From assembly GCA_048881705.1 (NCBI GenBank), contig JBHLSH010000068.1, forward strand, positions 1 to 22,131: a stretch of DNA of 22,131 nt, in the 5' to 3' direction. The position numbers were made by a program, and so were the translations under genes. The notes beneath the pieces were generated by a model. That model worked only from the letters and a program-made list of their open reading frames with translations. It was not told the DNA's origin and searched no databases. Within the stretch, counting starts at the first letter, position 1; every line of letters starts with the position of its first letter. Source of the stretch: Candidatus Heimdallarchaeota archaeon. Its GTDB lineage: Archaea > Asgardarchaeota > Heimdallarchaeia > Hodarchaeales > Hodarchaeaceae. Positions 1 to 20,436 of this stretch are shown here, piece after piece.

Positions 1-1917
1 AGCGAAACGGGATTGCACCACCTAGTGTGGGAAATTGTGGACAATTCTGTGGACGAAGCCATGGCTGGCTATTGTACACGTATTGTGGTCATTGTAGGAC
101 AGACTGAGGGAGGATTAGAGAGTGTCACTGTTCAGGACAACGGACGGGGCATTCCCACTGATAATCATCCCGATTATGATATTTCGTCTCTTGAGTTGGT
201 GACTACTAGGCTGCATTCTGGAGGGAAATTCGGGGAAGAAGCTTACAAAGTTAGTGGGGGATTGCATGGTGTTGGAATAGCGGTAGTAAATGCGTTGTCT
301 AGCTGGATGCAGGTTAAAGTAAAGAGAGACGGCAGGATTCTGATGCAGGAATATGTGAAGGGTGAAACAATCTCTCATGGTCTAATTGAGGTGGAAGAAG
401 ACTGGGAAGAAGAAACAGGAACCAGAATTAGCTTTATTCCCGACCCCGATATCTTTGAAACAACCCATTTCACCACCCAACAAATTAGGAGTAGATTAAG
501 GGAACTCGCATTCTTGAATAAAGGACTTGAAATTTTATTAATTGACAATCGACGCTATCTTAGTGATTTGGAGGGAGCTAAACCAGCAGAGCGAGATCAT
601 GCTGATTCCGAACCAGACTCTAACTCTGAAAAGGCTCTTTCTGAATGGCGATATTACTACGAGGGGGGAATCAGAGCTTATGTCGAACAACTTGCGCCAC
701 AGAAGGTACATGAAGATATACCATACTTTGATGAAACTATTGAAACTACACAAGTCGAAGTTGCCTTAGCATATGATCGCTCCGAACGTGATCTCGTCTA
801 CACATTCACTAATAATATAAATACCAAGCACGGCGGAACCCACCTATCAGGTTTTAAGGCAGGATTGACCCGGGCGATTAATGCATATGTTCAGAAGAAC
901 GAGCAGTTGATAAGGAATGCACGGCTCAAGAAGGAACTTAGAGATAAAAGATCGATCTTTAGCGGAAATGACGTAAGGGAAGGTTTAGTCGCGGTCGTTT
1001 CGGTGAAGGTTATTAATCCTCAATTCGAAGGTCAAACCAAAAGTAAACTTGGAAATTCAGAAGTAAAAGGCGTGGTCGAACGTGGGACATATGAGAACAT
1101 CCTACGATTCCTCGATGAGCATCCGGTCGATGGAAGAGAAATTATTCAGAAATGTGAGGAAGCAGCCTCGATTCGGATGAAATATCGCCAGCTTCGTGAG
1201 GCAATCAAGAAGACTCAAGCGAAAGGCACCGGAAAGCTCATAGATTGTTCAGAAACGGATCCTATGAGGCGCGAGCTTTTTCTCGTGGAGGGTGATTCTG
1301 CTGGAGGTAGTGCAATAGAGGGCCGCTTTAGTGAATTTCAGGCAATTTTACCGCTTCGAGGAAAGGTTATAAATGTCGAAAAGGCGCGATTGGAGAAGGC
1401 AATGAAAAACAAAGAAATTCTTGAAATCATAAGGGCTATCGGAGCGGGTTACAAGGAGAATTTCCAGATTGAAAATGTACGCTACCATAAAATTGTCTTA
1501 CTGATGGATGCTGACGTTGATGGGCATCATATTGTGTGTCTGCTGTTAACCTTCTTTTTTCGATATATGCCCGAACTGATTGACGAAGGCTACCTTTATA
1601 TTGCGCAGCCTCCGCTCTACAGAGTCAAAAAGGGCAACCAAGAGACCTATGTCTTGTCTGACCAAGAAAAAGATGAAATCCAACAGCAATGGGGAGGTAA
1701 GACTGAAGTTAGTCGGTTTAAAGGATTGGGAGAAATGAATCCTCTTCAATTGCGAGAAACCGTTTTGGATCCTGCGAACAGGATTCTCCTCCAAGTCACA
1801 CGAGACAATCTGATTGAAGCTGAACAGATGTTCGTGACGCTTATGGGACTTGAAGTTTCGCCCCGACGTAAATTTATAACAAGTCACGCCCTCGAAGTTG
1901 AGAGTTTGGATATATAG
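1..1917 (+). CDS. gyrB: DNA gyrase subunit B (5'-partial; frame is open from base 1, true start lies upstream of the window)
   Basis: Frame reads SETGLHHLVWEIVDNSVDEA (GHKL N-box), DNGRGIP, LHSGGKF...SGGLHGVG and GTRISF. TOPRIM motifs ELFLVEGDSAGGSA, LPLRGK and DADVDG are present, then FKGLGEMNP and a C-terminal LDI typical of GyrB. The TTG at 13 is an internal Leu. Directly upstream of a gyrA that has a GyrA-box. Confidence 0.97.
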   Translation, partial: SETGLHHLVWEIVDNSVDEAMAGYCTRIVVIVGQTEGGLESVTVQDNGRGIPTDNHPDYDISSLELVTTRLHSGGKFGEEAYKVSGGLHGVGIAVVNALSSWMQVKVKRDGRILMQEYVKGETISHGLIEVEEDWEEETGTRISFIPDPDIFETTHFTTQQIRSRLRELAFLNKGLEILLIDNRRYLSDLEGAKPAERDHADSEPDSNSEKALSEWRYYYEGGIRAYVEQLAPQKVHEDIPYFDETIETTQVEVALAYDRSERDLVYTFTNNINTKHGGTHLSGFKAGLTRAINAYVQKNEQLIRNARLKKELRDKRSIFSGNDVREGLVAVVSVKVINPQFEGQTKSKLGNSEVKGVVERGTYENILRFLDEHPVDGREIIQKCEEAASIRMKYRQLREAIKKTQAKGTGKLIDCSETDPMRRELFLVEGDSAGGSAIEGRFSEFQAILPLRGKVINVEKARLEKAMKNKEILEIIRAIGAGYKENFQIENVRYHKIVLLMDADVDGHHIVCLLLTFFFRYMPELIDEGYLYIAQPPLYRVKKGNQETYVLSDQEKDEIQQQWGGKTEVSRFKGLGEMNPLQLRETVLDPANRILLQVTRDNLIEAEQMFVTLMGLEVSPRRKFITSHALEVESLDI

Positions 1918-1923
1918 ACCGCC

Positions 1924-1928
1924 AGGAG
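1924..1928 (+). promoter_or_regulatory. Shine-Dalgarno (AGGAG) for gyrA
   Basis: AGGAG 10 nt upstream of ATG 1939, within the 21-nt gyrB-gyrA gap. Confidence 0.75.
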
Positions 1929-1938
1929 ATAAATTGAG

Positions 1939-4422
1939 ATGAGTTCCAATGTTAAAGTGGTCCCAATTGAACAAACAATGTCCAGGAGTTATCTTGAATA
2001 TTCGATGTCAGTTATAACATCGCGTGCCTTGCCGCATGTTAGGGACGGATTAAAACCAGTTCATCGACGGATTCTATGGGCAGCGCATAATCTTGGATTA
2101 ACCCATAATCGGCCACCGCGAAAATGTGCTCGTATCTCGGGGGAAGTTCTTGGAAAATATCACCCTCATGGGGATGCAGCCGTTTACGACGCTCTAGTAC
2201 GGATGGCTCAGCCTTTTTCGCTTCGATATCCATTGATTCAGGGTCAGGGAAACTTCGGAAGCATGGATGGACAGCCCGCCGCCGCCCAACGTTATACAGA
2301 GGCCAGAATGGAGGATATTACCGAGGAAATGCTCCAAGACATCGGCAAAGAGACAGTGGACTTTGTTGATAACTTTGATGGATTGGAAAAGGAACCTGTT
2401 ATTCTACCTACGCGGATTCCGAACTTATTGATAAACGGGGTTATGGGAATTGCGGTGGGGATGGCAACAACCATGCCTCCTCATAATTTGGGCGAAGTAA
2501 TCGATGGGGTAATGGCTACAATCAACGATCCGGATATTACCATTGACCAACTTATGGAATATATCCCCGGGCCAGATTATCCAACCGGAGGAGTGATTCA
2601 TGGAACTTCAGGGATTAAAAGGGCGTACCATAAAGGGCAGGGAACCATAATACTGAGAGCACGCTACCATACAGAGGAAAAAAAGGGAAAAACTCGAATC
2701 ATTATTACCGAAGTGCCTTATCTCGTAAAACGGCAGGATACAATTGATAACAGAGGTTTGGTTGATATAATTCTAAGAGAAAAAGAATTAGGAAAATTGG
2801 CCGATGTAGGGAGTGTCAGAAACGAATCTAGTATTATAAACGGCACTAAAATTGTCATTACTTTAAAAAGAAACGCTAATCTCGATATTGTCTTGAATCG
2901 ACTTTTCAAATACACTCCAATGCAGACCTCTTTCTCTATCCGTAACATGGTGCTCGTAGATGAATTGGTAGGAGAAACAACAAGATATCGACCCAAACTA
3001 CTAAACTTGAAGGGATTAATCACCGAATTCATCAACCACCGGTTCCAAATAGTCGAACGAAGAACACAATACGATCTCCGCAAGGCACGAGAAAGAGCCC
3101 ATATCTTAGAGGGACGTAAAATAGTGGTGGCGAACCTAGACGAAATAATCGCCCTGATCCGCGCCTCTGAATCTGGTCCACATGCCCAAGAATCATTGAA
3201 AGAGAAATTTTCGCTTTCTGAAATACAGGCCAAAGATATTTTGGCCTTACCGCTTCGTAGTTTAACCCGTTTTGACCAAGAAAAGATAATACGAGAGTAT
3301 GATGAAACTTTAAGGCAAATAAAAGAATATGAGTCAATTCTTGAAAATAAAGACCGAATCTATGAAATCATCGTTGAGGAACTGAAGGAGATCAAGAAAA
3401 AGCACGGGGATCCGCGTCGAACGCTAATCCGCTCGGAATCGCTGGACTGGTCTGAGAAAACCGAAGAAGACTTTATAACCAAAGAAGATATAGTAATAAC
3501 GTTAACAAGCAAAGGTTATATCAAATCTATACCTGCGGAAACATATAAAGCTCAGCATCGGGGAGGTAAGGGTATCAAGGCTATGGAAATCGCCAAGGAT
3601 GATTATTTGAAAGAAATGATCGTATGTTCAACCCATGATACGCTCCTTTTTCTGACCGTAAAGGGCCTGGTCTACACGAAACGAGGTTTTCAGATTCCAA
3701 TCTCCAAACAACGAGTAACCAAAGGAGTGAATATCGCTAACGTACTAAAACTAGAACGTGATGATGAGATTAGAACAATAATCCCTGTTTCAGAATTCAA
3801 TGATGGCCACTTCCTTATTACTGCAACCAAAATGGGAATCATCAAAAAAACCCCTTTGAAGGATTATGAACGTATAAGGTCAACGGGAATTATTGCTCAA
3901 CGTCTTCGAGATAACGACGTCATTATAGGGGCCAAAGTAACCGATGGATCGAGAGGTATAATTCTTGCAACGTTGAAAGGCAAGGCGATCCGTTTTCCAG
4001 AGGACGAGATACGTGTTGTGAAGAGAAGTAGCATTGGGGTTCTTGGAATTCGCCTAAATCAAGGCGACTACGTGGTCGATTTGGCTTTGGTCCATCCTGG
4101 TAAAACCCTCCTAACTGTGACAGAAAACGGCTATGGCAAGCGCTCGGAGTTTAAACATTATAGAATAACAAAAAGGAATGGCAAGGGGGTCATCAATATG
4201 AAAACAACAAAGAGAAATGGAGACGTAATAGCGGTACGGAGCGTTGCTGAAGATGATTATCTCTTACTGGTTGCGAATGATGGTAAATTGATCCAAATTG
4301 AAATCTCAAGTATCCGAGTCATTGGGAGAGCAACCGCAGGCGTCACCTTGATGCGAGTAAAACGTGAGGAAGGAGTAAAGATTTCCTCTATTGCCATTTT
4401 ATCCTCAGAGACGAACGACTAG
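1939..4422 (+). CDS. gyrA: DNA gyrase subunit A (827 aa)
   Basis: RALPHVRDGLKPVHRR, GKYHPHGD, GQGNFGS, catalytic Tyr in AAAQRYTEAR (Tyr119, 2293-2295) and GIAVGMAT. GyrA-box QHRGGKG at 3553-3573 and six recognisable beta-pinwheel blades in the CTD, so gyrase rather than ParC. Confidence 0.97.
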   Translation: MSSNVKVVPIEQTMSRSYLEYSMSVITSRALPHVRDGLKPVHRRILWAAHNLGLTHNRPPRKCARISGEVLGKYHPHGDAAVYDALVRMAQPFSLRYPLIQGQGNFGSMDGQPAAAQRYTEARMEDITEEMLQDIGKETVDFVDNFDGLEKEPVILPTRIPNLLINGVMGIAVGMATTMPPHNLGEVIDGVMATINDPDITIDQLMEYIPGPDYPTGGVIHGTSGIKRAYHKGQGTIILRARYHTEEKKGKTRIIITEVPYLVKRQDTIDNRGLVDIILREKELGKLADVGSVRNESSIINGTKIVITLKRNANLDIVLNRLFKYTPMQTSFSIRNMVLVDELVGETTRYRPKLLNLKGLITEFINHRFQIVERRTQYDLRKARERAHILEGRKIVVANLDEIIALIRASESGPHAQESLKEKFSLSEIQAKDILALPLRSLTRFDQEKIIREYDETLRQIKEYESILENKDRIYEIIVEELKEIKKKHGDPRRTLIRSESLDWSEKTEEDFITKEDIVITLTSKGYIKSIPAETYKAQHRGGKGIKAMEIAKDDYLKEMIVCSTHDTLLFLTVKGLVYTKRGFQIPISKQRVTKGVNIANVLKLERDDEIRTIIPVSEFNDGHFLITATKMGIIKKTPLKDYERIRSTGIIAQRLRDNDVIIGAKVTDGSRGIILATLKGKAIRFPEDEIRVVKRSSIGVLGIRLNQGDYVVDLALVHPGKTLLTVTENGYGKRSEFKHYRITKRNGKGVINMKTTKRNGDVIAVRSVAEDDYLLLVANDGKLIQIEISSIRVIGRATAGVTLMRVKREEGVKISSIAILSSETND

Positions 4423-4427
4423 GTGGA
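4421..4427 (+). promoter_or_regulatory. Shine-Dalgarno (AGGTGGA) for top6B, overlapping the gyrA stop codon
   Basis: TAGGTGGA spans gyrA stop 4420-4422 and lies 11 nt upstream of ATG 4439. Supports 4439 rather than TTG 4391 as the start. Confidence 0.65.
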
Positions 4428-4438
4428 ATGGATACAAA

Positions 4439-7400
4439 ATGACTAAAGCCACTAAATCCGCAAAAACCCAGCGTCCTAAGAGTACTTCTGATTCAAAGGT
4501 CGCACAGGAGAAAGTGGTAAAACGTTCCGCTGCGGACTTCTTTCAGGATAATAAGGCGATCGCTGGCTTCGATAACACAATGCGTGTTGTTTTTACTAGT
4601 ATCCGGGAACTGGTCGAGAATGGGCTGGACGCCGCGGAACGCGTTGGGCATCTACCGGAGATCAGAGTGATAATCCAACGGCTCTCACGGGATGAAATCG
4701 CAAAGCTATTGAATATAACTCAATTTGATTCTTCAGACAAGATTGACTTTCTACGTTTAACCGTAAGAGACAACGGATCAGGAATCCAATCTGAATTTGT
4801 ACCACCACTTTTCGGACGCGTTTTAACTGGTAGCAACTACGGTGCTCGTCAGTCTCGCGGACGATTTGGATTAGGTGCCAAGATGGTTCTTTTGAACGCT
4901 ATGTCCTCAGTCGATCTTCCATTGGTTATTAAGAGTAAGCATCTAAACGAGGACTTTACAAGTTACCATGAACTTATGATTAATCTTGCAGAAAATGAAC
5001 CTATTATCATTAACAGACGTGAGGTCCCCCAAGGGACGACGGAGGCAATTCCAAACTCTGGAACCGAGGTTAGTGTAACATTCACAGGGGCATGGGGTCT
5101 TGCTGCTCGCTATGTGTATGAATATTTCTCCCAATTAGCACTGATTACTCCTTATGCTTCCTTTTACATACAATATCCAGATAGTGATGTTCCAGTCGAG
5201 ATGGAACGAGTGGTAGAAGAAATGCCTCCGTATCCTCAGATTGCAAAGGTGCACCCTTGGGGAACTGATATAACTCAGTTCAAGCGAGAACTTGCCGTAA
5301 CACGAGTTTCGACTATGGAACAGTTTCTTCAGGAGCATTTCCAAGGCATCGGCGCAAAAACGGCTAAGGATTTCCTAGAGTTCGTGGGAATTCAAGCAGA
5401 TAAATCCCCCGATAAGTTGGAGGCAAGCGAGATCCGGCGTATCGTCCATGAGGGATTTGTGATGCCCGATTCAGATCCAAAGAAACGACGTACGCAGAAA
5501 TATTTTCCATTTAAACGTCCAAGTGGTGATTCTCTTGCTCCCCTGGGAGAAAACCTATTGGCAAAAGGAATTGAAAAAGAGCTAACGCCTCAGTTCGTGA
5601 GGGCGGCTTCCGGGGACGTCTCTGCGTATTCTGGTCATCCTTTCGTCATCGAGGCTGCTCTGGCATATGGAGGGCCAAACCTCTCGGGTGAGATAGGAAG
5701 CCCGAGGATCTATCGGTTTGCCAATCGGATACCGTTATTGTTCGGCGCAGGAAATGATATTATCACGAAATGCGTCCAAAAAATGAATTGGAAGAATTAC
5801 AAAATTTCAATTAATAAATCACCTATTGCCATCGTAGTTTCCGTAGTTTCGTCAAAAATACCATTCCCAGAAACTAGTAAGGAGTATATTGCCGATGTGG
5901 ATGAACTACGCGAGGAAATAAATCGAGTTCTCCGAAAATTGGCACGGGGACTGAGTCAGCATTTAGGCCGGGCTGAGAGAGAACGTCGTGAAAAACAGCG
6001 ACAATCTCGTTTTGAAAGCGCAGCTCCCAAAGTATTACGTAACTTGATGAATATTGTAAAAGACACCCCTTTCATCCTGGAATCACATGAAGAAGTTGCA
6101 AAACTTGAAAAAGCTCTGGCATCGGCAGTTCCCAGGCTTGTTCGTCGAAAATATCCTCCTAGTCCCGCCATTTCCAGCATTGGGGAATGGCTCCCCACTG
6201 AAACCTACGGAACTTTGGTAGAGAACGATTTTCAAACGATATTTCAGTTTTTACGGGCATCTAACGTGGAATTAAGCAAGATCACAGGCTTTGGTGAGGA
6301 TCGTATCGATGATATAAAGCGAAGAACGGTTAACGATCAAGAACGTTCAAAACAGGCCCCCCTTATGCGGGAATTTGAGATTTTTAACAAAAATATCGAA
6401 GATGATTTCAGCAAATATCGTGACATGCTTCGAATACATAAAGCATTCAATAAGCGTTGGATTGTATCGTCTCTTGATTTATTTGCAACCCCAGTTTCCC
6501 AATTAAGGTATATAGAAGGATTTCCAGAGAAATTAATCTATGATTGTAAAAGTAAAGCTGTTGAAATTCAACTAAAACACAGTTCCAGCGAAACTATTGC
6601 CATGGAGAACGCTGAATGGATGACCGATAACCTTCTCAAAAATTTTAGAAAGGCAAAAATCGATACTTTATTTGATTATATAATCGGATTTCCTGAAAAA
6701 TTGGCCCAGATACCGTCATTAAACCGTCGACTCATCGAATGGGCTAAGGACGAGATCAAGGGAGGGATTAAGGCGGGGTACATAGATCCTGAGAGCGTCA
6801 TTGGAGCGGCTTCTTTTGATTGGATGGATTATAAGGTTACTCCTCGTCTTCGTGGTCGAAAAATATCAAAGATTAAAGAGTTTCTTCAAACACCTTCTGA
6901 AACATTAGCAGAGTTACCTGAACTAGCTGAGAATCTGATTTTGCGATCAAAACAACTTTTCAAAGATAAGCTGGAAGATTTCAATGACCCTGACTCTCTT
7001 ATGGCTATTCCTGGAATTTCTGAATCCATGCAATCTGATTTGACGCGCTTAGAGATCCGTGGATTAGTTGATTTCCTTTTAAAGGGGGAGAATGAACTTC
7101 ATATTCTTAGAGGATTCACAAATCAACTCATTAACATGAAACTAGACGAGATCTATGAAGAGATCATCCAAAATCATGAAGCCTTTCCCATAAAAAACGC
7201 TTTATGGCTGGATCCTGACTTAGAATCTCAACTTAAGAGTTTCGGGATCAATTATGTTTACGATTTTGTTAAAACTGCTTCCTCCGAGCTTGAAAAGATC
7301 AAAGGAATGGATCCCCACATTTTAAGGACAATAAAAAGTGTTTATGGAACTCCTATACCGTTTTTTACCCCAGATGAAATGATATCATTAGAATCCAAGA

Positions 7401-10400
7401 AAATTTTCTGTTTAGAAGAACTTTATACGGCCATAAATAATCAACTTCTCCCGTCTGGGGCCTTGGGTACCAAGGCAAAGGACTTGCTGGACATCCTTTC
7501 TCAACCAATTTGCTTCTTACCTGTTTCAGGCAAATATTACTTATTATTTCATAATCTCGGAGTATCTAGAATTTTCGACCTGCTTATTTGGAATGATGCG
7601 GACCTACACAAAACCACGAAGGTTTCATACCAGGTCATTGATCAGATCAAGAGTACATTAAGTTTGGATCAGATAAGGGAGTTGATTGAAGAAAAATCAA
7701 TACCAATATCTGCATTGGCTGGGAATCTAAAGGGTAAGGAATGGACGTCTCTACTGGAATCAGGTTCAGGCGTACAGGCTCTCTATTATGCACTTCCCTA
7801 TTCAAATAGAGAACTGGGTGAACTTAATCTCACAGACAAGATGAGAAAACAGTTAGCTCGTCTTTTTAGAACACCTGTGACAAATTTACCGCAGATAAAA
7901 TCGAAATGGGTCTCACGTCTCCATTCAAATGGGATCAGCACCTTTATTGAACTAATTAGTTGGCCCCGCGAGGAATTGGTAAGGATCTTAGGGCGAGAGC
8001 GCAGTTTCGTTGATAATCTTTTTTCAGAGTTTCCTCCTTTCAGATCCGGAATGCCTCTAATTAGCTTAGGTGTCTTTTCAGCTACTGAAATGAAAACATT
8101 AAGAGATTCAGGATTTGAAACTGTCGAAGACGTTTATTTTGGGTTTAAGAAAGAACTCTTTAGTATAATGGGAGTTAAATGGAAAAAAATCGAACGATAC
8201 CAGCGCCGCCTTGAGACACCAATTGCGATGCTTCAGCTGGCAACAACGGCAGAGGGGTCGAAAATCCGAATCTCTCATGCGGGAATAGAGAGATTGGCGA
8301 CGAATGCGATCGATCAAATCATCAAACTTGTATACTGGGATAACCCGCAATTAAAAACCATTTTAAAAATGTCTGATGAGCGGGTACAAGAATTAAAAAG
8401 ATCCATAGCAATCAAGGAAGAGGGAATGCCATTGGGTAGAGTGAGTGGATTTACTCGAAAAGTTGCAGCAACTTTGACGGGGTATGGCATTGAAACGGTA
8501 GAAGATCTATATTTTAGCGCATCTGAAGATATGTTGGATGAAGAAGATGACCTTCAATGGGATGTGGTTAAGAAGGCAATGGAAGCTTTGGATCTTCCCA
8601 TTTCATACCTTACTGGAGTGATTCCAGATGATTACCTTGAGAAATTAATTGGAAAACGCATAGATACCATTATTCGATTTCTGATAACGTCTCCCGAGGA
8701 GCTCTCCTCTGTACTCGGAACTCCAATTGATAATATCGAAAATTTCCAGCAAAAAATCAACCTTATTAATCTCCGGGAATCCGCTGAAACGTCCATTTCG
8801 ATTTTAGACGGATTAAAAAGAAAGGATATTGCAACATTCGCGAATGAGGGAATTTTAACCGTTTTTGACTTCTTAACCAGTCCAGATGAACAGATATCAA
8901 GCGTTTTGGCCATTGATGTCAAGAAAGTGGAATCAATGAAAAAAGACATACACTTTTCAAGCATAGAGACCATAAAGGAAGAAAAAATGATACCATTGTC
9001 ATCAATAGCTATTTTTGATAGAAAAACGGTTAAAAAACTAGCACGCCTTGGAATAGAGAGCCTTTCTGATCTCTATTATGTTGCAACTTCAAAGAATTTG
9101 GAAGAGAGTCCAGTTGAATGGCAGGAGATTCTTGATGCCCGCATTGTGTTAGATATGCCACTGATAGCGAGTTCGGAGGTATCTCACGAAGAAATTGAAA
9201 TTCTTCGTAAAGCAAAGATCGTTCGAATTTTGGATTTAATGATGGATACTACCGAAACATTGGAAAAGCGAACAAAGCTCTCCAGTGATCGCATCGAAGC
9301 GATTAAGAAATCAATCAACTTTAATGAAATCCTTTCCCTTATTAAAAGCCTTTCTTCCCTAAAGCTTGATTTTCCTCCTGATTACAAGAGAAAAATTCAG
9401 ACTCTAGACCTTCAGACCGTTTACGATTTATTAGCACATCCTGATCCTGAATTCTATTTGGGCAAACTTAACGATCGAGCATATCGAATAGATTCCACAA
9501 ATTGGGAATCTTTATTCTCAGTATTGTCTATCCCCATTTCGTTAATTTTGGGTTTGGATCCTCCGACAATCAAATTATTAAATAGAAAACAGATTCGTAC
9601 TATGAGAGACGCACTTGTTGCGTCCGAGGCAAGGCTAGAGGGTGTTGAGGGTATTGAACCAACCGAATTTATTTCCGATCTAAAAGCCTTGAGTTTTTCT
9701 GAAATATTTCAGTTCAAACAGATACCTATGGTCTTTATCCCGAACTTACCCACCGAGTTCATTTTTCCCCTGATCGATAATAAGATAACTAGGGTAGATC
9801 ACTTATTGGATGCTTCTAATAGTGATGTAGCAGCAGCTTTGGAAACCTCAAGCACCCGGATCCGTAAAATACTTTCCAACTTGAGTATGTCTACAACCAT
9901 CAAATCAATGGAAGACAATTCGACTCCTTTAGATCAGTTTTCCTCCCTGGTTTCGAAATCTACCTTACAAAAACTTTCTAATATTGGGATTAGCACCATT
10001 CAGGAATTATATTTGCACGATCGTGAACAACTCAGCTTTAACGGACTCTCGGAATTATTTGCTTTTTTAGATCTTCCGATTAATCGTTTATCAACTGATA
10101 TACCGACTGGGGATCTCAGGAAGCTGTCACAATACGGAATAAATACCCTATTCCGATGGTTCTTCATTCCGAATCCCAATCTTTCAAAAATACTAGGAAT
10201 GGAAATCAGTGAGATAGCGGAAATCAAAAAAGAGTTCGACCCAGAGACGGCTTCATCTGCCAAATTAAGCGAAACTGATGTACCCCTAAAGGCCATTGTT
10301 GAGACGGGGTACATTGATTTCGATGAACTGGAGAAACTTGGAATCCGAACACTTGAGGATATGCTATTTGCGAATTTAGAAACTTTAGAATGCTCTGACA

Positions 10401-11407
10401 AGCTTAAGAAGCGTCTCAATAATCTCATTGATGCAGCAAACTCTTCATTAGCATATTATTCTTTATTGGATCCAACTTACGTAATGCCACTTGCGTTTAA
10501 CGGTATCACGTCGGTCAAACTATTGATTCAGAGTGAATTTTCACAGATTCGGGATAATATGGGTATTCTTGATGAAAATGAATATAATACAGCCCGTTCA
10601 TCGGTGAACCTTGTTAACATTCTGACCCATAAGAAGACTGAATCGGAATTTCGCGTAAAACTGTCTTCACTAAGGGCCTTTACCCCGAAACAACTAGAAG
10701 TGGTTCAAAAATTGGGAATAGACAACGTGGTTGACTTATATTTTCTTCTAGATCCAGATAAATCCCCTAAATCAGTAGCAAGTTCTGTGGATAGCGTCAA
10801 AAGGGTCTTAGAGAAGCCTTTTGCATCGTTAACTAGTATTAGTGCACCGAACTTAGCATCAAAGGTGGCCTTGTTATTTAACGCAGGAATTACTTCGATT
10901 ATTGAATTCCTTTTTTGGCCTAAATCTGATCTCGCTGAGCTCTTAGAAATTAAGCGATATGAACTAAACAGGTTTAGAAAGATTAATCTCGGTGATTTAA
11001 GAAGGAAAAAGCTCGGTACCCCTCTCGAGAACTTCGTGAGAGTCCCTGAAGAGTATATCGAACCTTTAAACGAATATGGCATTGATTTCATCGAAGATCT
11101 TTACTTCTACCTTAAACGTTATCCAACATTAATACCTGGGGATATGATTCCAGGAAAAATACTAAATGAATGGATCAAGGATCTTGATTCGCCGATTGTG
11201 CGACTAGCGGGTTTGCCTATTCCGGTTACTCAGGAATTAATCACAAAGGGAGTAAATCGAATCATTGATTTCTTATATTGGCCTGTGGATGAACTAAAAC
11301 AGGTCTATGGCTTATCAGAAACTAAAATCAAATCAATTAAGAAAAATGTCCGTTTAAGACGAAAAACAGATGTATTGGGACAACTAGACAAGTTTATGGG
11401 AGAATAG
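4439..11407 (+). CDS. top6B: DNA topoisomerase VI subunit B with a giant C-terminal (HhH)2-repeat extension (~2,322 aa)
   Basis: The first ~570 aa show SAADFF...AGFDN, RELVENGLDA (N-box), DNGSGI, QSRGRFGLGAK, GTEV, an H2TH (FQGIGAKTAKDFL), transducer RFANRIPLLF, the WKxY motif (WKNY), SKEYIA lysine and a stalk helix EEINRVLRKLAR...ERERREK. The ORF then continues without a stop for ~1,750 aa of helical repeats. Immediately upstream of top6A. Confidence 0.93.
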   Translation: MTKATKSAKTQRPKSTSDSKVAQEKVVKRSAADFFQDNKAIAGFDNTMRVVFTSIRELVENGLDAAERVGHLPEIRVIIQRLSRDEIAKLLNITQFDSSDKIDFLRLTVRDNGSGIQSEFVPPLFGRVLTGSNYGARQSRGRFGLGAKMVLLNAMSSVDLPLVIKSKHLNEDFTSYHELMINLAENEPIIINRREVPQGTTEAIPNSGTEVSVTFTGAWGLAARYVYEYFSQLALITPYASFYIQYPDSDVPVEMERVVEEMPPYPQIAKVHPWGTDITQFKRELAVTRVSTMEQFLQEHFQGIGAKTAKDFLEFVGIQADKSPDKLEASEIRRIVHEGFVMPDSDPKKRRTQKYFPFKRPSGDSLAPLGENLLAKGIEKELTPQFVRAASGDVSAYSGHPFVIEAALAYGGPNLSGEIGSPRIYRFANRIPLLFGAGNDIITKCVQKMNWKNYKISINKSPIAIVVSVVSSKIPFPETSKEYIADVDELREEINRVLRKLARGLSQHLGRAERERREKQRQSRFESAAPKVLRNLMNIVKDTPFILESHEEVAKLEKALASAVPRLVRRKYPPSPAISSIGEWLPTETYGTLVENDFQTIFQFLRASNVELSKITGFGEDRIDDIKRRTVNDQERSKQAPLMREFEIFNKNIEDDFSKYRDMLRIHKAFNKRWIVSSLDLFATPVSQLRYIEGFPEKLIYDCKSKAVEIQLKHSSSETIAMENAEWMTDNLLKNFRKAKIDTLFDYIIGFPEKLAQIPSLNRRLIEWAKDEIKGGIKAGYIDPESVIGAASFDWMDYKVTPRLRGRKISKIKEFLQTPSETLAELPELAENLILRSKQLFKDKLEDFNDPDSLMAIPGISESMQSDLTRLEIRGLVDFLLKGENELHILRGFTNQLINMKLDEIYEEIIQNHEAFPIKNALWLDPDLESQLKSFGINYVYDFVKTASSELEKIKGMDPHILRTIKSVYGTPIPFFTPDEMISLESKKIFCLEELYTAINNQLLPSGALGTKAKDLLDILSQPICFLPVSGKYYLLFHNLGVSRIFDLLIWNDADLHKTTKVSYQVIDQIKSTLSLDQIRELIEEKSIPISALAGNLKGKEWTSLLESGSGVQALYYALPYSNRELGELNLTDKMRKQLARLFRTPVTNLPQIKSKWVSRLHSNGISTFIELISWPREELVRILGRERSFVDNLFSEFPPFRSGMPLISLGVFSATEMKTLRDSGFETVEDVYFGFKKELFSIMGVKWKKIERYQRRLETPIAMLQLATTAEGSKIRISHAGIERLATNAIDQIIKLVYWDNPQLKTILKMSDERVQELKRSIAIKEEGMPLGRVSGFTRKVAATLTGYGIETVEDLYFSASEDMLDEEDDLQWDVVKKAMEALDLPISYLTGVIPDDYLEKLIGKRIDTIIRFLITSPEELSSVLGTPIDNIENFQQKINLINLRESAETSISILDGLKRKDIATFANEGILTVFDFLTSPDEQISSVLAIDVKKVESMKKDIHFSSIETIKEEKMIPLSSIAIFDRKTVKKLARLGIESLSDLYYVATSKNLEESPVEWQEILDARIVLDMPLIASSEVSHEEIEILRKAKIVRILDLMMDTTETLEKRTKLSSDRIEAIKKSINFNEILSLIKSLSSLKLDFPPDYKRKIQTLDLQTVYDLLAHPDPEFYLGKLNDRAYRIDSTNWESLFSVLSIPISLILGLDPPTIKLLNRKQIRTMRDALVASEARLEGVEGIEPTEFISDLKALSFSEIFQFKQIPMVFIPNLPTEFIFPLIDNKITRVDHLLDASNSDVAAALETSSTRIRKILSNLSMSTTIKSMEDNSTPLDQFSSLVSKSTLQKLSNIGISTIQELYLHDREQLSFNGLSELFAFLDLPINRLSTDIPTGDLRKLSQYGINTLFRWFFIPNPNLSKILGMEISEIAEIKKEFDPETASSAKLSETDVPLKAIVETGYIDFDELEKLGIRTLEDMLFANLETLECSDKLKKRLNNLIDAANSSLAYYSLLDPTYVMPLAFNGITSVKLLIQSEFSQIRDNMGILDENEYNTARSSVNLVNILTHKKTESEFRVKLSSLRAFTPKQLEVVQKLGIDNVVDLYFLLDPDKSPKSVASSVDSVKRVLEKPFASLTSISAPNLASKVALLFNAGITSIIEFLFWPKSDLAELLEIKRYELNRFRKINLGDLRRKKLGTPLENFVRVPEEYIEPLNEYGIDFIEDLYFYLKRYPTLIPGDMIPGKILNEWIKDLDSPIVRLAGLPIPVTQELITKGVNRIIDFLYWPVDELKQVYGLSETKIKSIKKNVRLRRKTDVLGQLDKFMGE
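6164..11350 (+). repeat. Protein-level tandem array of ~28 (HhH)2/HHH_5-like units of ~50-65 aa within Top6B
   Basis: Recurrent pattern P[IL]xxLxx(h)xxxxxxxLxxxG[IF]xT[IV]xD[LF][LY]...eLxx[IL]xG[hs]xxxIxxIk. Examples: PAISSIGEWLPTETYGTLVENDFQTIFQFLRASNVELSKITGFGEDRIDDIK; PIKNALWLDPDLESQLKSFGINYVYDFVKTASSELEKIKGMDPHILRTIK; PLGRVSGFTRKVAATLTGYGIETVEDLYF; PIVRLAGLPIPVTQELITKGVNRIIDFLYWPVDELKQVYGLSETKIKSIK. Count is by eye (+/-2). No nucleotide-level identity between units is evident. Confidence 0.85.
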
Positions 11408-11412
11408 GAGGT
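11406..11412 (+). promoter_or_regulatory. Shine-Dalgarno (AGGAGGT) for top6A, overlapping the top6B stop codon
   Basis: TAGGAGGT includes top6B stop 11405-11407 and lies 7 nt before ATG 11420, so the N-terminal extension of Top6A is very likely translated. Confidence 0.85.
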
Positions 11413-11419
11413 TTATCTT

Positions 11420-11674
11420 ATGGCTACAGTCGTTATAGAAGATGCAACAGGTCTTTCAAAGAAGGTTATCCAAAGCGAAATAGAGGAAGATAGTTCAGTC
11501 CGAATCATCCGGACTCTGGTGAAAAAGGAACTCGATTTAGGGAAACAACCTTTTCAGGTGTTTTTCGGGAAAAGGCAAGACAAGAACTTTAAGGAGCTTA
11601 ATGAAAGAACTATAGATGGATTTAAGGAGCTTAAAAAGGATAATATAGACCTAGTATTGCGTATCCGAAGAAAA
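11420..11674 (+). other. Putative ubiquitin-like (beta-grasp) domain at the N-terminus of Top6A
   Basis: MATVVIEDATGLSKKVIQSEIEEDSSVRIIRTLVKKELDLGKQPFQVFFGKR...ERTIDGF...IDLVLRIRRK aligns by eye with ubiquitin [67 protein letters not shown]. Shared elements: TG turn, KxIxxExE strand, amphipathic helix, F-GK, RT, LVLRxR. No terminal GG. Confidence 0.65.
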
Positions 11675-12820
11675 ATCGACCTAACCAAACTGCAAAGCCT
11701 TCATAAAGTTGTTTCAGATCAGGATATTGATCTTCCAGTAAGCATATTGAAGGTCGATAATGTTGAGCCATCAGAAACAAAACGCAGGTTACAAGATGTA
11801 GCTAGAGAGTTTCTTGAGGAAATTGCTGTCAGTCCGGACGGAGCCGCTTTTCGTATTCCAGCGCGTAGTTCCGAAAATGTAGGTTATGATGATAGCTCAA
11901 AAATGGTTCTTTTGGGGAGTCATGTTGTTGATCGTCAGTTTCGTCATTTAAGTAGCGTTCAAGGAATTGTTCAGCTTACAGGCCTTATGCGGTACATTGA
12001 TGAGATTCTTGACGCAGAAAAACATGCCACGAAGCGCCATTTATTCTATAGGGATGTGAATCTATTCGGGAACCAACGAGTCTCTGATACCCTGATAGAG
12101 GATTTAGGGGCCCTTCTTCGAGTGTCTCGTAATTCTCTAAACGTAATTGCTTCTGCCAAAGGCAAAATTATAGGCAGATTGTCCTTTACAGAAGGTGGAG
12201 ATTTCATAGATTGTACCCAGGGTTTGGGGGGGCATGCTATTACGCCTATGCTGGATCAAATAGATAATTTTGAAAGCGACGCGGAATTCGTTTTGGTAAT
12301 TGAGAAAGACGCAGTATTTCAAGATCTGGCTGAGGATAAGTTCTTTAACTATATACCTTGTATTCTGGTTACGGCCTCAGGTCAACCTGATATGGCTACA
12401 CGTCTTTTTCTCAAACGATTGTATGAGGAGGTGAAACTTCCTATTTTGGGATTTCTGGATGCCGATCCATATGGATTGGACATCCTTCGGGTATATAGCA
12501 TCGGTTCAAAGGCCTTAAGTTTTGAATCCGTTGAGATGGCGATTCCAGATATTCGTTGGTTAGGTTTACTTCCCTCAGATATAAAGGAATATCAGATCCC
12601 TAAGTCGGTGCTTATCAAAATGACAGATAATGACATTAAGCGAGCTGATGATCTTCTTAAGGAGGATTTCGTTCGATCACGGCCTGAGTGGGAGAGGCAA
12701 ATCCAAATTATGAAGGATACGGGTCACAAGGCCGAAATTCAGGCCCTGGCGTCTAAAGATTGGCGGTTTATGACGAATACCTATCTCCCGAGCAAGCTAG
12801 ACTCTGGTAGTTGGGTTTGA
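11420..12820 (+). CDS. top6A: DNA topoisomerase VI subunit A (Spo11 homolog) with an N-terminal ubiquitin-like extension (466 aa)
   Basis: Winged-helix ATKRHLFYRD with putative catalytic Tyr210 (12047-12049), LNVIASAKG, TOPRIM FVLVIEKDAVF, ASGQPDMATRLFL, DADPYG, IRWLGLLPSD, KAEIQAL and C-terminal YLPSKL..GSWV. About 100 aa longer at the N-terminus than typical Top6A. Confidence 0.96.
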   Translation: MATVVIEDATGLSKKVIQSEIEEDSSVRIIRTLVKKELDLGKQPFQVFFGKRQDKNFKELNERTIDGFKELKKDNIDLVLRIRRKIDLTKLQSLHKVVSDQDIDLPVSILKVDNVEPSETKRRLQDVAREFLEEIAVSPDGAAFRIPARSSENVGYDDSSKMVLLGSHVVDRQFRHLSSVQGIVQLTGLMRYIDEILDAEKHATKRHLFYRDVNLFGNQRVSDTLIEDLGALLRVSRNSLNVIASAKGKIIGRLSFTEGGDFIDCTQGLGGHAITPMLDQIDNFESDAEFVLVIEKDAVFQDLAEDKFFNYIPCILVTASGQPDMATRLFLKRLYEEVKLPILGFLDADPYGLDILRVYSIGSKALSFESVEMAIPDIRWLGLLPSDIKEYQIPKSVLIKMTDNDIKRADDLLKEDFVRSRPEWERQIQIMKDTGHKAEIQALASKDWRFMTNTYLPSKLDSGSWV

Positions 12821-12860
12821 TCGTCCGAGAAGAATCGCTTTTTCCCCTCTGCTGAGACTA

Positions 12861-13538
12861 ATGATGCTGTCGATGTCGTTCTTCATCGTTCCAGGCTTTG
12901 AAAACGTCGATCATGGGGAAGTACGCCGAATATTAGATCTTGTTCAGAGCGTCATTGCTTTCTCACAGGGTCAATCTCTGGATAAAAAAGCCATTGGTAG
13001 GATCACTAAAAAATTGGGGGCTCGTATGTTTGGCAGCGAGTTATTTCCTGGGGGGTCCAGTGTCCTTTTTGCTTGGCGTTTCCCAATCGAAAAACTCGGG
13101 GCTGTTGTGGTAAAACCTTACTATAGCGGCACAATTACCCGCCTTCTAATCCATTATTTTACCCAGATTGACTACTTCCAAACGTACAAGGATAAAGAAT
13201 TCCTGTCTCCGAATGGGAAGGTAATCTTACTCAATATTCCTCAGGTGGTTGGCTTCGCGAAGATCGAAACCTTTAATCGTGAATTTCCAACTTTATTGGT
13301 GGAGGAAGCGGTGGGAGAATCTATTCAAACAAATCCGACCTTGATTCGCCAAGTAAGCCAGATTGCGCGTCAAATGGCTTCGGAAGGCCTCATTTTCGAC
13401 TTTTATCCTTCAAATTGGAAGCTTCATGGAAAAAAACTAACCTACGTGGATCTGCTGAGCTCAAATAAACTAAAAAATTTGAAAAAAAGAATTACTCAAC
13501 TATTGGAAAAGATTGAATCTCCTGCGGCCAGAATGTGA
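12861..13538 (+). CDS. Hypothetical protein with a minimal protein-kinase-like (atypical RIO/Bud32/APH-like) fold, ~225 aa
   Basis: Motifs in kinase order: Gly-rich loop LFPGGSSVLF, beta3 lysine AVVVK85, IPQVVGF strand, hinge LLVEEAVGES, helix then GLIFD180FYPSN185 (DxxxxN catalytic loop) and YVD197L (DFG-position Asp). Very short C-lobe. Start may be ATG 12861, 12864 or 12873. Confidence 0.6.
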   Translation: MMLSMSFFIVPGFENVDHGEVRRILDLVQSVIAFSQGQSLDKKAIGRITKKLGARMFGSELFPGGSSVLFAWRFPIEKLGAVVVKPYYSGTITRLLIHYFTQIDYFQTYKDKEFLSPNGKVILLNIPQVVGFAKIETFNREFPTLLVEEAVGESIQTNPTLIRQVSQIARQMASEGLIFDFYPSNWKLHGKKLTYVDLLSSNKLKNLKKRITQLLEKIESPAARM

Positions 13539-13553
13539 CTTCCAATGGTTGGA

Positions 13554-14105
13554 TTATAACTCCCCGTCACGGTAATAGACCGCACGTCTTATTGCTGAAG
13601 CAAAGGCAGTTCCGACTCCCCTTCCCGTGACCGCAGAGGTGGGAAAATATGGCGCATTTAATTTATCCGCGAACCTCTGTCCGATCTCATCCTGGAATTC
13701 TCTGTTTTTGATGTCAATTTTATTTGCGCAGAGTACCGCTGGCACAGTTCCAAGCGTTTTTTTAACTTCTTTCACCCAATGGGGAAGTGAAATAAGGGTA
13801 GATTCTCGTGTGACATCCGCCACGTAGATAACCGAGTGTGCTCCTTCATAGAATATGGGACGAACCTTATCAAAGGTTGGTTGGCCAGAAAGATCCCAAA
13901 AAATCGCTGTTGTATGGCCTTCAGTCTTCTCAGGGGCTCTGATCTTTAGGAAAGAGATATCGGCGCCAGCTGTTGGCTTATGCTCAAAATCTCTTTTGGT
14001 AAAGACGGATACAAGCTGAGTTTTCCCTACCAAGGGATCCCCCACTATTACGATCTTGTATTGAGCATGATGTGGGATTTCAAAGAGAATTTCTTCTTGG
14101 GACAT
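13554..14105 (-). CDS. Rab-like small GTPase (Ras superfamily), ~183 aa
   Basis: G1 GDPLVGKT, G2 PTAGAD, G3 WDLSGQ, FYEGA (Rab YYRGA-like), G4 NKID, G5 TSA; no C-terminal Cys. I chose ATG 14105 because GGAG lies 9 nt upstream; the alternative start is 14120. Confidence 0.93.
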   Translation of the reverse strand: MSQEEILFEIPHHAQYKIVIVGDPLVGKTQLVSVFTKRDFEHKPTAGADISFLKIRAPEKTEGHTTAIFWDLSGQPTFDKVRPIFYEGAHSVIYVADVTRESTLISLPHWVKEVKKTLGTVPAVLCANKIDIKNREFQDEIGQRFADKLNAPYFPTSAVTGRGVGTAFASAIRRAVYYRDGEL

Positions 14106-14250
14106 GATAAATAACTCCATTCAATTGATTTTGAAAGGAAAGATCGAAGATCGGATTATTGTTGAAATTCTTGTCACGAAAGCTCCGTATATGTCCGGTT
14201 ATAAGAGCTATAAAGAACCCTTTGGAGATTCCTCTTTAAAACTTTCTTTA

Positions 14251-14437: not shown

Positions 14438-16345
14438 TCACTCTTCTTCAATGGAAGGGGGTAAAATTATCGGTACCTCCCATGTCAGTATTGTTTCCCC
14501 CCCTTCTCTTTCTATTTTTGGATTCTTGGCAGGACCATTAGTTGAAAAGTCCTTTAAGAGCGCAATCGCGGGTTTATTGTTCCCCATTAGCTCTGTAACA
14601 AATTTACTTATTCCTCTAGCACTGGCAACTGTTGTCAGGCAATATAAGAAGAATCTAGCCAATCCTTGGTTTCGATAGTCATCATGGACTAAAAGTGAGA
14701 TTTCCGCAGCCGTTTGATCACGTAATACGTAGAAATGGCCCGTACCTATAATTTGCTCTGAGCTTATCGGCCCCAGAAAGGCAGCGATGCCAAAATCACT
14801 TTTAAAGTCTAGGTTTGCTTCCTTTTGGGCCTCTTTATGTGGTAAGGCGCGGATGGCGCTAAAATAACGGGAGAATCGTGCTTCCGTAGACAAGGAATAA
14901 AAAAACCTCCTGAGCTTATCTTCATCAGAGCTTAAAATCGGACGCACGCGAACGGACTCTCCTTTCTTCAAAGTGAAAAGTTCCTGAAAAGCGAGTGGAT
15001 AGAGGAGGGCTTCGGAGCTGTCATAAAATGTCTGATCAGGATAAATATATCCAAGGTCCAATGCATGTCGAAAAAGGTCTTGCCGGAACTTCGGGTGTGC
15101 TAACTCTATCATTCTCAGAACTCGTTCTCGTAAAGATGCCCCATGCAGATAGGCTATTCCAAATTCTGTAACCACATACTCGATATTCGCTCTGGTAATT
15201 GCGACTCCTGCTCCTGGAGTTAAGTGCGCGACTATCCGTGATTTTTCCCCATTCTTTGCTGTTGATGGCAATGCAATAATTCCCTTTCCATTGGGCGCCA
15301 TTTGAGCACCCAAATGAAGATCTGAGGCTCCACCAATCCCACTATATAAAATATGCCCGAGACTATCCCCCACAACCTGGCCAGTTAGATCTACCTCTAT
15401 TGCGGAATTGATTGCAGTCATTTTGGGATTTTTAGCAATTATATTGGGATCAAGAACGTAATCAGAGGGAAAGAATTGGAAAAAGGGATTGTTATTTACT
15501 GCGTTGTACAGTTTTTTTGTCCCAACACAGAATGCTGCGACGGTCGCGCCAGTATGGATAGTCTTGGCGGAGTTGTTGACAACCCCATTCTCAATTAGAT
15601 CAAGAACTGAGTCATTAATCATCTCCGAGTGTATTCCTAAGTCTTTTTTTGAGGTTAAATACTTGGGAACCGTCAGAGGAACCTTTCCAAAGCCAAATTG
15701 TAGTGTAGATCCATCTTCAACCAATGTAGCAACATTAGAGGCCACTTTTTCGATTTGTGGAGATACTGGAGGAAGTTTCCATTCAATCAGGGGAGCTCTA
15801 TTCTCGACCAGGTAATCAATACCTGAGATCGGAACGAGACTGTCTCCATAGGTCACAGGCATTTCCGGATTAACCTCTGCAATAACCAATCTTGCATTTT
15901 CGATTGCAGCCTTACTAATATCTACATTAATTCCCAAAGAGACAAATCCAGATTCATCTGGCATAGAAGTTTGGATGAGGGCCACATCTATGGGGAGGAC
16001 TTTATTTCGAAATAATCTGGGTACCTTTCGGGTTGAAAGGGGAGTGTAATCCGCCTTTCCTTCTCGTACTGCCTGTCTAAGATTCCCTGTTATGAAAAAA
16101 CTGTTATAACGAAACCGATGGGCGTATTGTTCCTTCACATACGGGGCAGATCCAAGAGAAATTGCGTGATAGATTTCATTATCCAGTGTTTGCATTTCCA
16201 TCGTTGATAAATGCAATAGAAGGAGCTGAGGTTCCGCACATCCCGCCCCCGCGAAAATACGATCTCCAGGTTTTATCTGGGAGAGCGCTTCGGTCGGAGT
16301 GGTTAGTTTGGATTCCCAATCCAGCCCATCTACAGGTTGAAACAT
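14438..16345 (-). CDS. Acetyl-CoA hydrolase/CoA-transferase fused to a C-terminal GNAT acetyltransferase (635 aa)
   Basis: IKPGDRIF.G.GCAEP, DVALIQTSMPD..GFVSLG, TLQFGFGKVP, LGIHSEM (catalytic Glu position), NSAIEVDLTGQV, GIGG, IIALPST, EYVVTEFGIA. The C-terminal ~170 aa read VRVRPILSSDEDKLRRFFYSLS...AEISLLVHDDYRNQGLA (GNAT motif A). Confidence 0.9.
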   Translation of the reverse strand: MFQPVDGLDWESKLTTPTEALSQIKPGDRIFAGAGCAEPQLLLLHLSTMEMQTLDNEIYHAISLGSAPYVKEQYAHRFRYNSFFITGNLRQAVREGKADYTPLSTRKVPRLFRNKVLPIDVALIQTSMPDESGFVSLGINVDISKAAIENARLVIAEVNPEMPVTYGDSLVPISGIDYLVENRAPLIEWKLPPVSPQIEKVASNVATLVEDGSTLQFGFGKVPLTVPKYLTSKKDLGIHSEMINDSVLDLIENGVVNNSAKTIHTGATVAAFCVGTKKLYNAVNNNPFFQFFPSDYVLDPNIIAKNPKMTAINSAIEVDLTGQVVGDSLGHILYSGIGGASDLHLGAQMAPNGKGIIALPSTAKNGEKSRIVAHLTPGAGVAITRANIEYVVTEFGIAYLHGASLRERVLRMIELAHPKFRQDLFRHALDLGYIYPDQTFYDSSEALLYPLAFQELFTLKKGESVRVRPILSSDEDKLRRFFYSLSTEARFSRYFSAIRALPHKEAQKEANLDFKSDFGIAAFLGPISSEQIIGTGHFYVLRDQTAAEISLLVHDDYRNQGLARFFLYCLTTVASARGISKFVTELMGNNKPAIALLKDFSTNGPAKNPKIEREGGETILTWEVPIILPPSIEEE

Positions 16346-20130: not shown

Positions 20131-20436
20131 TTAGGTCGGGAAAATCTAATTATGGTGTTACCTTGAAAACACCAGTTCTGTCTTCGAAGCAGAATCGACC
20201 AGAAATCATTGTTTCATAGACCTTAATTTTGAGTTTTTGGACATTAAATTGGGGTAACAAGGATATAAAAATTGGCGGTTTTCTCGTTTAGACTACGATC
20301 TTAGAATTCCTTTAATTGCATGAAATTTTCGAGATTGTGATGGGATTTCTTATTTAACCTTCCGCATTAAAAGCCAAATGACAGGCTTATACCAAAAAAC
20401 CTGTTGTCGTTCGTATAGGAATTTTTGGAAGGAATA

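Follow-up and report, generated by a model that had tools for sequence, protein, structure and literature searches.

Do five co-oriented genes on a contig of Candidatus Heimdallarchaeota archaeon, encoding a DNA gyrase, a topoisomerase VI (Topo VI) with extra domains on both subunits and a kinase-like protein, form a single regulated system, or do several features of different age meet there? We examined this question in a stretch of 22,131 nt (contig JBHLSH010000068.1 of assembly GCA_048881705.1), hereafter called the window; all positions given below are coordinates of the whole window. A first-pass annotation of the sequence had proposed the five genes as one candidate system. We favor another reading, to which as a whole we assign a probability of roughly 0.6: the locus carries a gyrBA-top6BA unit with a specialized, decorated and catalytically intact Topo VI, followed by a kinase-like neighbor (open reading frame 5, ORF5) that is specific to the genus. 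The object of interest is then a doubly decorated Topo VI found clade-wide, rather than a five-gene 'system'. The features concerned, with helix-hairpin-helix abbreviated as HhH and AlphaFold2 as AF2, are as follows:

1..1917, + strand: gyrB, truncated at the 5' side where the window begins and so about 30 codons short
1939..4422, + strand: gyrA, with the catalytic Tyr (AQRYTE) and the GyrA box (QHRGGKG)
4439..6118, + strand: top6B core (aa 1-560), GHKL ATPase and transducer (NF003218, PF09239)
6170..11359, + strand: top6B C-terminal array (aa 578-2307), 25 detected (HhH)2 units of about 57 aa each
11420..11674, + strand: top6A N-terminal domain (aa 1-85), predicted beta-grasp (ubiquitin-like) fold (AF2 model, Foldseek)
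11675..12820, + strand: top6A linker (aa ~86-120) and winged-helix (WHD)/Toprim core, with Tyr210, Glu295 and D347xD349 (PF04406, PF21180)
12839..12843, + strand: T5 tract, 19 nt 3' of the top6A stop codon, possible archaeal terminator signal
12861..13538, + strand: ORF5, 225 aa, predicted minimal protein-kinase-like fold (AF2, Foldseek, VIA)
13554..14120, - strand: Ras-family small GTPase gene, convergent (PF00071, E=6.5e-31)

The complete top6B ORF extends from the ATG at 4439 to 11407 and encodes 2322 aa. The ORF coordinates agreed with the five co-oriented genes described earlier and with their intergenic distances of 21 (gyrB/gyrA), 16 (gyrA/top6B), 12 (top6B/top6A) and 40 nt (top6A/ORF5). 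The database gene call takes the Met at 12873 as the first residue of ORF5 (221 aa), and the last gap then widens to 52 nt. The gene said to close the cluster was found where it had been placed, ending 15 nt from ORF5, and encodes the Ras-family GTPase; the assignment of the DNA to Hodarchaeales within Heimdallarchaeia was likewise borne out by the names of Top6B homologs. The order and orientation of all six genes were kept in 9/9 same-genus loci that were fetched, with protein identities of 39-77%, so the layout is not a product of chance. The Ras-family gene held the same position and orientation in all nine congener loci (68-97% identity).

Judged by profile scores and motifs, the gyrase and the Topo VI are both catalytically complete and are encoded back to back. 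GyrB (NF004189, 778 bits; cut-off 740) and GyrA (NF004043, 1043 bits; cut-off 902) scored above the NCBIfam cut-offs, and the EGDSA, PLRGK and DVDGHHI motifs of GyrB were present, as were the two GyrA motifs listed above. In the Top6B core (NF003218, 447 bits, cut-off 274; PF09239, 175.9 bits, cut-off 24), the N, G1 and G2 boxes are retained, as is the switch Lys (ELVENGLDA, DNGSGI, GRFGLG and SKE). Top6A was recognized by PF04406 (65, cut-off 26) and PF21180 (216.6, cut-off 24.1) and retains KRHLFY (Tyr210), IEKDA (Glu295) and DADPYG (D347/D349); by Foldseek it matched 1d3y (E=8e-17). The NCBIfam equivalog cut-off was not reached by Top6A (best NF003333, 275.7 versus 465 bits), and by its sequence it is a divergent, eukaryote-like or Asgard-type Top6A. 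The ratio of nonsynonymous to synonymous substitution rates (dN/dS) against the nearest congener was 0.02 for gyrB and 0.06 for the top6B core. This was the only Topo VI found in the window's own genome (90.9% complete), where PF09239 and Top6A matched once each. In its GHKL-transducer B core, its WHD-Toprim A core and all catalytic motifs, the enzyme resembles the canonical Topo VI of S. shibatae and M. mazei (2zbk, 2q2e and 1d3y); unlike the canonical enzyme, it carries an additional 1,760-aa HhH arm on the B subunit and an additional beta-grasp domain and linker of about 110 aa on the A subunit.

Over-long gyrase ORFs were seen in some relatives (G and L numbers label genomes and loci, respectively). 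The gyrB of G023 (L022, 1-3477) is open over 1158 aa, and gyrA ORFs of 1270 and 1096 aa had a split match; the loci involved are L022/G023 for gyrB, G028/G038 for gyrA, and G018:C17. The extra length suggests inteins or insertions.

The C-terminal tail of Top6B comprises about 1,760 residues. A unit profile iterated from regular-expression seeds detected 25 (HhH)2 units of about 57 aa between residues 578 and 2307, of which 20 are nearly contiguous from residue 1145 on, with linkers of 0-14 aa. Before residue 1145 lie four gaps of 48-73 aa, which probably hide degenerate units and would bring the total to about 28-29. The profile was needed because the units are too diverged for self-BLASTP, which returned no repeats in the tail at E<1e-3. 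Pfam placed RAD51D_N (PF21794, 81.3 versus a cut-off of 27.3), HHH_5 (PF14520, 54.1 versus 27) and RNA_pol_A_CTD in the tail. Searched against the PDB, the unit profile matched the C-terminal domain of RNA polymerase alpha (alpha-CTD) over its full length (E=1.6e-5), as well as NusA AR, RAD51D-N and the Pol iota thumb; topoisomerase V (Topo V) was absent from these matches at E<=1. On the strength of the unit-profile and Pfam matches, the repeats are identified as (HhH)2 domains, and the HhH array reported earlier is real at the domain level. In the window's own genome, 24 of 25 unit-profile matches fell in top6B. The tail is under purifying selection (dN/dS of 0.11 versus the nearest congener), and the length of Top6B is constant across the genus (2311-2346 aa); the homolog of Hodarchaeum mangrovi has 2317 aa and is 82% identical in the core. 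Mean BLOSUM scores were 15.6 between adjacent units, 24.5 between units two apart and 25.3 between units three apart, which hints at alternating unit types, weakly visible and without a clean period. Among the tandem (HhH)2 arrays known to us, these, which may reach 50-60 units in relatives, would rank as the largest.

Topoisomerase V of Methanopyrus kandleri, which joins a type IC core to 12 (HhH)2 domains, offers a comparison. Both proteins fuse a topoisomerase catalytic module to a long tandem (HhH)2 array. Here, unlike in Topo V, the catalytic part is a type IIB B subunit, the units number about 28 instead of 12, and the tail is acidic. The type IC catalytic domain was not found, the catalytic part being Top6B, and we regard the likeness as one of analogy, not of membership.

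On the A subunit, the NCBIfam and Pfam family matches start only at residue ~111-124. An AF2 model built on an 18-sequence alignment gave residues 1-84 a beta-beta-alpha-beta-beta-alpha-beta order, with a predicted local distance difference test score (pLDDT) of ~69-86 per 10-residue block. Foldseek against the PDB returned ten Top6A/Spo11 matches first and then mostly beta-grasp domains, including the PB1 domains of NBR1, p40phox and Par6, the ubiquitin-like (UBL) domains of USP15, USP4 and TBCE, ubiquitin, UBX, FERM-F1 and the PI3K RBD. The short-domain matches had TMt values of 0.57-0.68, a root mean square deviation of 2.8-3.9 Å and weak E-values of ~1e-2, for a domain modeled as part of a longer chain. 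The model thus supports a ubiquitin-like beta-grasp fold, which in topology and size is like the USP15 UBL, the TBCE UBL and the NBR1 PB1. No Pfam ubiquitin or PB1 match was obtained for this domain. A word-based homolog search with the UBL region found only two proteins, and a protein-atlas look-up gave sub-threshold leads only (score 0.79), to archaeal ubiquitin-like clusters. Sequence comparison showed the domain to be under purifying selection. The free C-terminal Gly-Gly of a ubiquitin- or SAMP-type modifier was not present; the domain ends in ...LRIRRKIDL and runs on into the linker and core. Because it is an integral N-terminal domain, it is not a conjugatable tag: of the 'ubiquitin-like tag' claimed earlier, the fold stood and the tag did not.

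Both additions were traced among relatives (f1, f2 and so on are family labels). Top6B lengths were as follows, the giant forms of Heimdallarchaeia families spanning 1108-4305 aa:

f1: about 2310-2346 aa
f2: about 2400 aa, assembled from two contigs
f5: about 3470-3590 aa
f3 and f6: about 4140-4305 aa
f7: about 2530-3570 aa
f4: about 1110-1155 aa, with 5 units
f20 (another class): about 2290 aa
Other Asgard families: about 500-680 aa among the matches listed, with one f27 Top6B of 1353 aa

Wherever the UBL profile matched, it hit a single locus in the genome, and this was invariably the beginning of a Top6A of about 470 aa; such matches came from f1 (8/9), f3 (17/18), f5 (5/5), f6 (1/1), f7 (3/3) and f20 (2/2); in f2, the domain was found in both Top6As by direct alignment. 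It was not detected in f4 (0/2), and 109 genomes of other Asgard families gave one marginal match only (f23, E 6e-4). The UBL-bearing families are those with a Top6B of at least 2200 aa. The HhH array and the UBL domain therefore go together: almost every Heimdallarchaeia family has both, as does one family outside the class. To judge from this pattern, they are an old, co-inherited pair across Heimdallarchaeia.

The other features of the cluster are more restricted. Gyrase was found in f1, f2, f3, f5, f6 and f7; it adjoins top6B in every congener whose contigs allow this to be seen and in G023 (f2), and the gyrase genes of f3 and f5 are at other genomic sites. The search for gyrase found none in f4 (0/8) or f20 (0/2, both genomes 100% complete), and both of these families have a second, canonical Top6B/A pair. 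In L035 (G058:C6:511500-530500), from a family of another Asgard class, a canonical Topo VI gene pair (top6B, 557 aa; top6A, 387 aa) and a 968-aa ORF of no assigned identity were observed in tandem, on the same strand, with a decorated top6B (2289 aa)-top6A (463 aa, UBL) pair; gyrase was not found in this genome (G058). The ORF5 family was present in 19/21 genomes of f1 and 2/2 of f2, and in 0/59 genomes of other Heimdallarchaeia families, which confines its known members to Hodarchaeales among the genomes scanned; ORF5 adjoins top6A in 19/19 congeners having both genes. The features are thus nested, the array and UBL being outermost, then the gyrase adjacency (order) and then the ORF5 adjacency (genus), and they are not one co-inherited system. 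On the question whether the array, the UBL and the kinase co-occur and stay adjacent across Asgard genomes, the answer was yes class-wide for the array with the UBL and no for ORF5, whose adjacency is limited to the genus; the adjacency of gyrase is limited to the order. An independent distribution among relatives, which would speak against a single system, was seen in part, since the features are nested rather than co-distributed.

Transcription signals drew a similar boundary. Across ten loci (nine congeners and the window), the gaps within gyrB/gyrA/top6B/top6A were -4 to 22 nt. Upstream of gyrB, which starts with TTG, a TTTAAA-like box was conserved at a distance of ~115 nt, and an AGGAGGT Shine-Dalgarno sequence precedes the start of top6A. 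The four genes probably form one operon. The top6A-ORF5 gaps in the same ten loci were 6, 6, 12, 12, 28, 40, 72, 89, 202 and 225 nt. In L016 and L017, TTTATAA boxes lie 35-40 nt before the ORF5 start; no TATA-like box was seen in the top6A-ORF5 gap of the window. T5-T6 tracts comparable to the T5 of the window follow top6A in the congeners L013 and L016. Because of the 72-225-nt gaps in several congeners, the longer of them with TATA-like boxes and oligo-T tracts, ORF5 may be a separate transcript, and would be a conserved, partly autonomous neighbor. A scan for sigma-70 promoters and intrinsic terminators, a model that is wrong for archaea, found no more sites than in shuffled sequence.

What, then, is ORF5? 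It had no Pfam match (E<=0.01) and no NCBIfam match (E<=0.1), the named kinase families Pkinase, RIO1, Kdo/WaaP, APH and ABC1 included, and its profile retrieved nothing meaningful from PDB sequences. In a 14-sequence alignment, GGSSVLF (with G64-V68), K85 (in KPYY), E149, D180-x4-N185 and D197 were invariant. The AF2 model (pLDDT 88) matched Rio2, PknG, PRPK, TkArkI and APH by Foldseek (1zar, E 2e-5), essentially all top matches belonging to the protein-kinase-like (PKL) superfamily, and VIA-align over residues 1-206 (Z 8.9-7) matched the ABC1-like Rv3197, PRPK, Rio1/2, APH and WaaP. On this model, ORF5 has a minimal protein-kinase-like fold with the core motifs, as its first description as kinase-like had held. 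It is like Bud32/PRPK and RIO1/RIO2 (also ABC1/UbiB-like proteins and APH) in its truncated C-lobe, G-rich loop, beta3 Lys, DxxxxN and metal-binding Asp; unlike these atypical minimal kinases, it lacks an invariant alphaC Glu and a His before the catalytic Asp and has an extra N-terminal helix pair. The family is small (in a set of 1.84 billion proteins it forms 47 clusters when grouped at 50% identity), and dN/dS against the nearest congener was 0.15. Two metagenomic homologs (P0107 and P0108, 291-302 aa; L039) end in an (HhH)2 unit that resembles those of the Top6B tail (hhalign probability 92%) and whose GIGP hairpin is canonical; their contigs of 1.4-2 kb are too short for genomic context. 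In G022, of the sister family, the reciprocal-best homolog of ORF5 follows the DNA primase genes priL-priS, with a 4-nt overlap with priS (L027 979-4067, G022:C122), and the homolog in G023 has other neighbors. ORF5 paralogs lie beside aminotransferase and membrane-protein genes, and DNA-metabolism genes were not found in their neighborhoods. Ras-like genes were also seen in G022, ~2.7 kb upstream of the ORF5 ortholog and on the far side of priL-priS, and in G024, where the distance is ~2.3 kb downstream of top6A.

Several observations weigh against the reading of a decorated Topo VI with a genus-specific neighbor, and they bear on the alternatives in different ways. The families compared are phylogenetically non-independent, and the co-occurrence counts reflect ~2-3 independent events; the operon, for its part, is deduced from gaps and promoter-like elements. 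As for the array, DNA binding is suggested by the domain type and is not assured. The tail as a whole is net acidic (pI 5.4; K+R 226 versus D+E 256), the net charge of its individual units ranges from -8 to +5, the hairpin Gly is kept in 15/24 units in the first hairpin and in 10/24 in the second, and the HhH arm of Topo V is basic, unlike this tail. The array might mainly be a protein-interaction scaffold, recruiting or recruited by chromatin, replisome or segregation proteins, instead of a DNA-binding arm. The acidic tail with its near-neutral units and the loss of hairpin glycines in many of them would fit such a role, as would the best profile matches, RNA polymerase alpha-CTD and NusA AR, both protein-contact modules; the unit-by-unit collinear conservation and constant array length in the genus suggest unit-specific partners. 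However, RAD51D-N, HHH_5 and the Pol iota thumb, also matched, are DNA-contacting modules, the tails of f3 and f4 are mildly basic (pI 8.6-9.3), and Topo V provides a precedent for DNA binding by an array fused to a topoisomerase. We consider a mainly scaffolding array to be on the unlikely side.

With regard to ORF5, two opposite readings compete, and the same gaps and neighbors bear on both. The five genes might be one regulated chromosome-topology module, with ORF5 as the kinase acting on Topo VI and/or gyrase, and with the UBL domain and the array as prokaryotic counterparts of Ub/SUMO and of accessory DNA-binding subunits. The adjacency of ORF5 in every congener, four of which have a gap of 6-12 nt, is in line with this, as are the retention of all its core catalytic residues, the existence of ORF5-HhH fusions, and the placement of the G022 ortholog in another DNA-replication context. 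Against it, the family was not found in 59 genomes of other Heimdallarchaeia families with a decorated Topo VI, a single genus shows the adjacency, several species have signals resembling promoters and terminators in the top6A-ORF5 gap, the fusion of the UBL ahead of linker and core excludes conjugation, and the single helix that follows the DFG-like Asp in the ORF5 model leaves no obvious lobe for a peptide substrate. A prediction of the Top6A-ORF5 complex scored 0.00 and gave no answer, speaking neither for nor against binding. We judge such a module improbable, and the eukaryote-like regulatory layer proposed at first went unsupported; nothing tested showed phosphorylation, tagging or coupling. 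ORF5 might instead be a functionally unrelated neighbor, kept by genomic inertia in one genus and perhaps belonging with the convergent Ras-like GTPase. In its favor are the nested, genus-limited adjacency, the variable gaps with TATA-like elements of their own and the gene contexts of the paralogs; the Ras-like gene is equally conserved beside ORF5, and a Ras-like gene lies near the G022 ortholog as well. Counted against the favored reading are the 72-225-nt gaps, the longer ones with TATA-like boxes, the oligo-T tract right after the top6A stop codon in L016 and the T5 of the window and L013, the non-topoisomerase contexts of the sister-family orthologs and the paralogs, and the fast evolution of ORF5 (39-47% identity, versus 72-77% for Top6A). 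Yet the adjacency survives down to that 39% identity in all 19 congeners with both genes, the 6-12-nt gaps in four species suggest co-transcription, and the HhH-fused homologs point to a connection with DNA or HhH arrays. An unrelated neighbor is a plausible alternative, somewhat short of even odds, and a functional tie between ORF5 and Topo VI is possible.

Under the favored reading of a gyrBA-top6BA unit, bacterial-type gyrBA is followed by the only Topo VI genes of the genome, with no room for a promoter between them, and the TATA-like element in front of gyrB would drive all four genes as one transcription unit. The decorated Topo VI would be a specialized enzyme in a division of labor, for example, a decatenase or a resolver of crossings, since another type II enzyme, either gyrase or a canonical Topo VI, is always present. 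By its two long, flexible HhH arms it would be anchored to DNA, to chromatin partners or to both, and the beta-grasp domain would serve as a protein-protein docking site. ORF5 would be an order-specific minimal protein of kinase/ATPase fold, fixed beside top6A in this genus only, and perhaps an ATP-dependent switch or kinase linked, weakly, to HhH-bearing proteins.

Parts of this arrangement have precedents. Co-localization of gyrase and Topo VI genes in haloarchaea and some methanogens is attributed to Berthon 2008 in Villain et al. 2022 (PMC9348778). There, gyrBA and top6BA are described as contiguous and likely divergently transcribed, and Top6B carries an Ig-like C-terminal domain of ~100 aa, which was read as co-adaptation of the two type II enzymes. 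The window resembles these loci in that gyrBA and top6BA are neighbors and Top6B has a lineage-specific C-terminal extension; it differs in that all four genes point the same way, no more than 22 nt apart, and the extension consists of ~1,760 aa of (HhH)2 repeats. The division of labor considered above accords with the published proposal that Topo VI specializes as a decatenase where gyrase is present (Villain et al. 2022, PMC9348778). The same study reported gyrase in Heimdall-, Kari- and Hodarchaeota and not in Thorarchaeota, in agreement with the placement of the window in Hodarchaeales. Lineage-specific 'globular' C-terminal extensions of Top6B in gyrase-bearing Asgard archaea and a signature insertion in Asgard Top6A were already known. 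For the HhH array, the fusion of a UBL domain to Top6A/Spo11 and ORF5, no description was found in the literature that could be searched; the Top6B proteins are in NCBI under the plain name 'DNA topoisomerase VI subunit B'.

Beyond the Ras-family gene, the window contains an acetyl-CoA hydrolase/transferase, with its N and C domains, that bears a GNAT acetyltransferase domain fused at the C-terminus (14438-16345, - strand) and a 991-aa fusion of an FAD-linked oxidase to 4Fe-4S and two CCG domains (16548-19523, + strand). Downstream of the latter lie a DUF3303 ORF (19829-20089, + strand) and a gene for a LUD-domain protein (20425-21600, + strand); together with the oxidase fusion, they look like a lactate/glycolate-type oxidation cluster. 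The NCBI taxon labels of near-identical proteins of the genus conflict (Thorarchaeota, Hodarchaeota, Hodarchaeales, Promethearchaeota, Heimdallarchaeota and Odinarchaeota), and labels alone would mislead. Thorarchaeota, the label of one close homolog, was rejected for the window because the Top6B homologs are named Hodarchaeota, Hodarchaeales, Hodarchaeum mangrovi, Heimdallarchaeota and Kariarchaeaceae.

The finding qualifies the published rule that C-terminal extensions of Top6B track the presence of gyrase, as f20 and f4 have extended Top6B and gyrase was not found in them. The arrays also pose a tractable biochemical question, whether they bind DNA or protein. A far bolder view, that the heimdallarchaeial Topo VI is a chromosome-scale architectural enzyme beyond a relaxase or decatenase, to which control by a dedicated minimal kinase/ATPase was added in one genus, is in our estimation improbable. 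Spo11 and plant Topo VI both descend from Topo VI, and current placements put no archaea closer to eukaryotes than Heimdallarchaeia, including Hodarchaeales. In this lineage, a Top6B of 2 to 8 times the normal length, together with a UBL domain on Top6A, would imply a hitherto undescribed way of targeting or specializing a type IIB topoisomerase.

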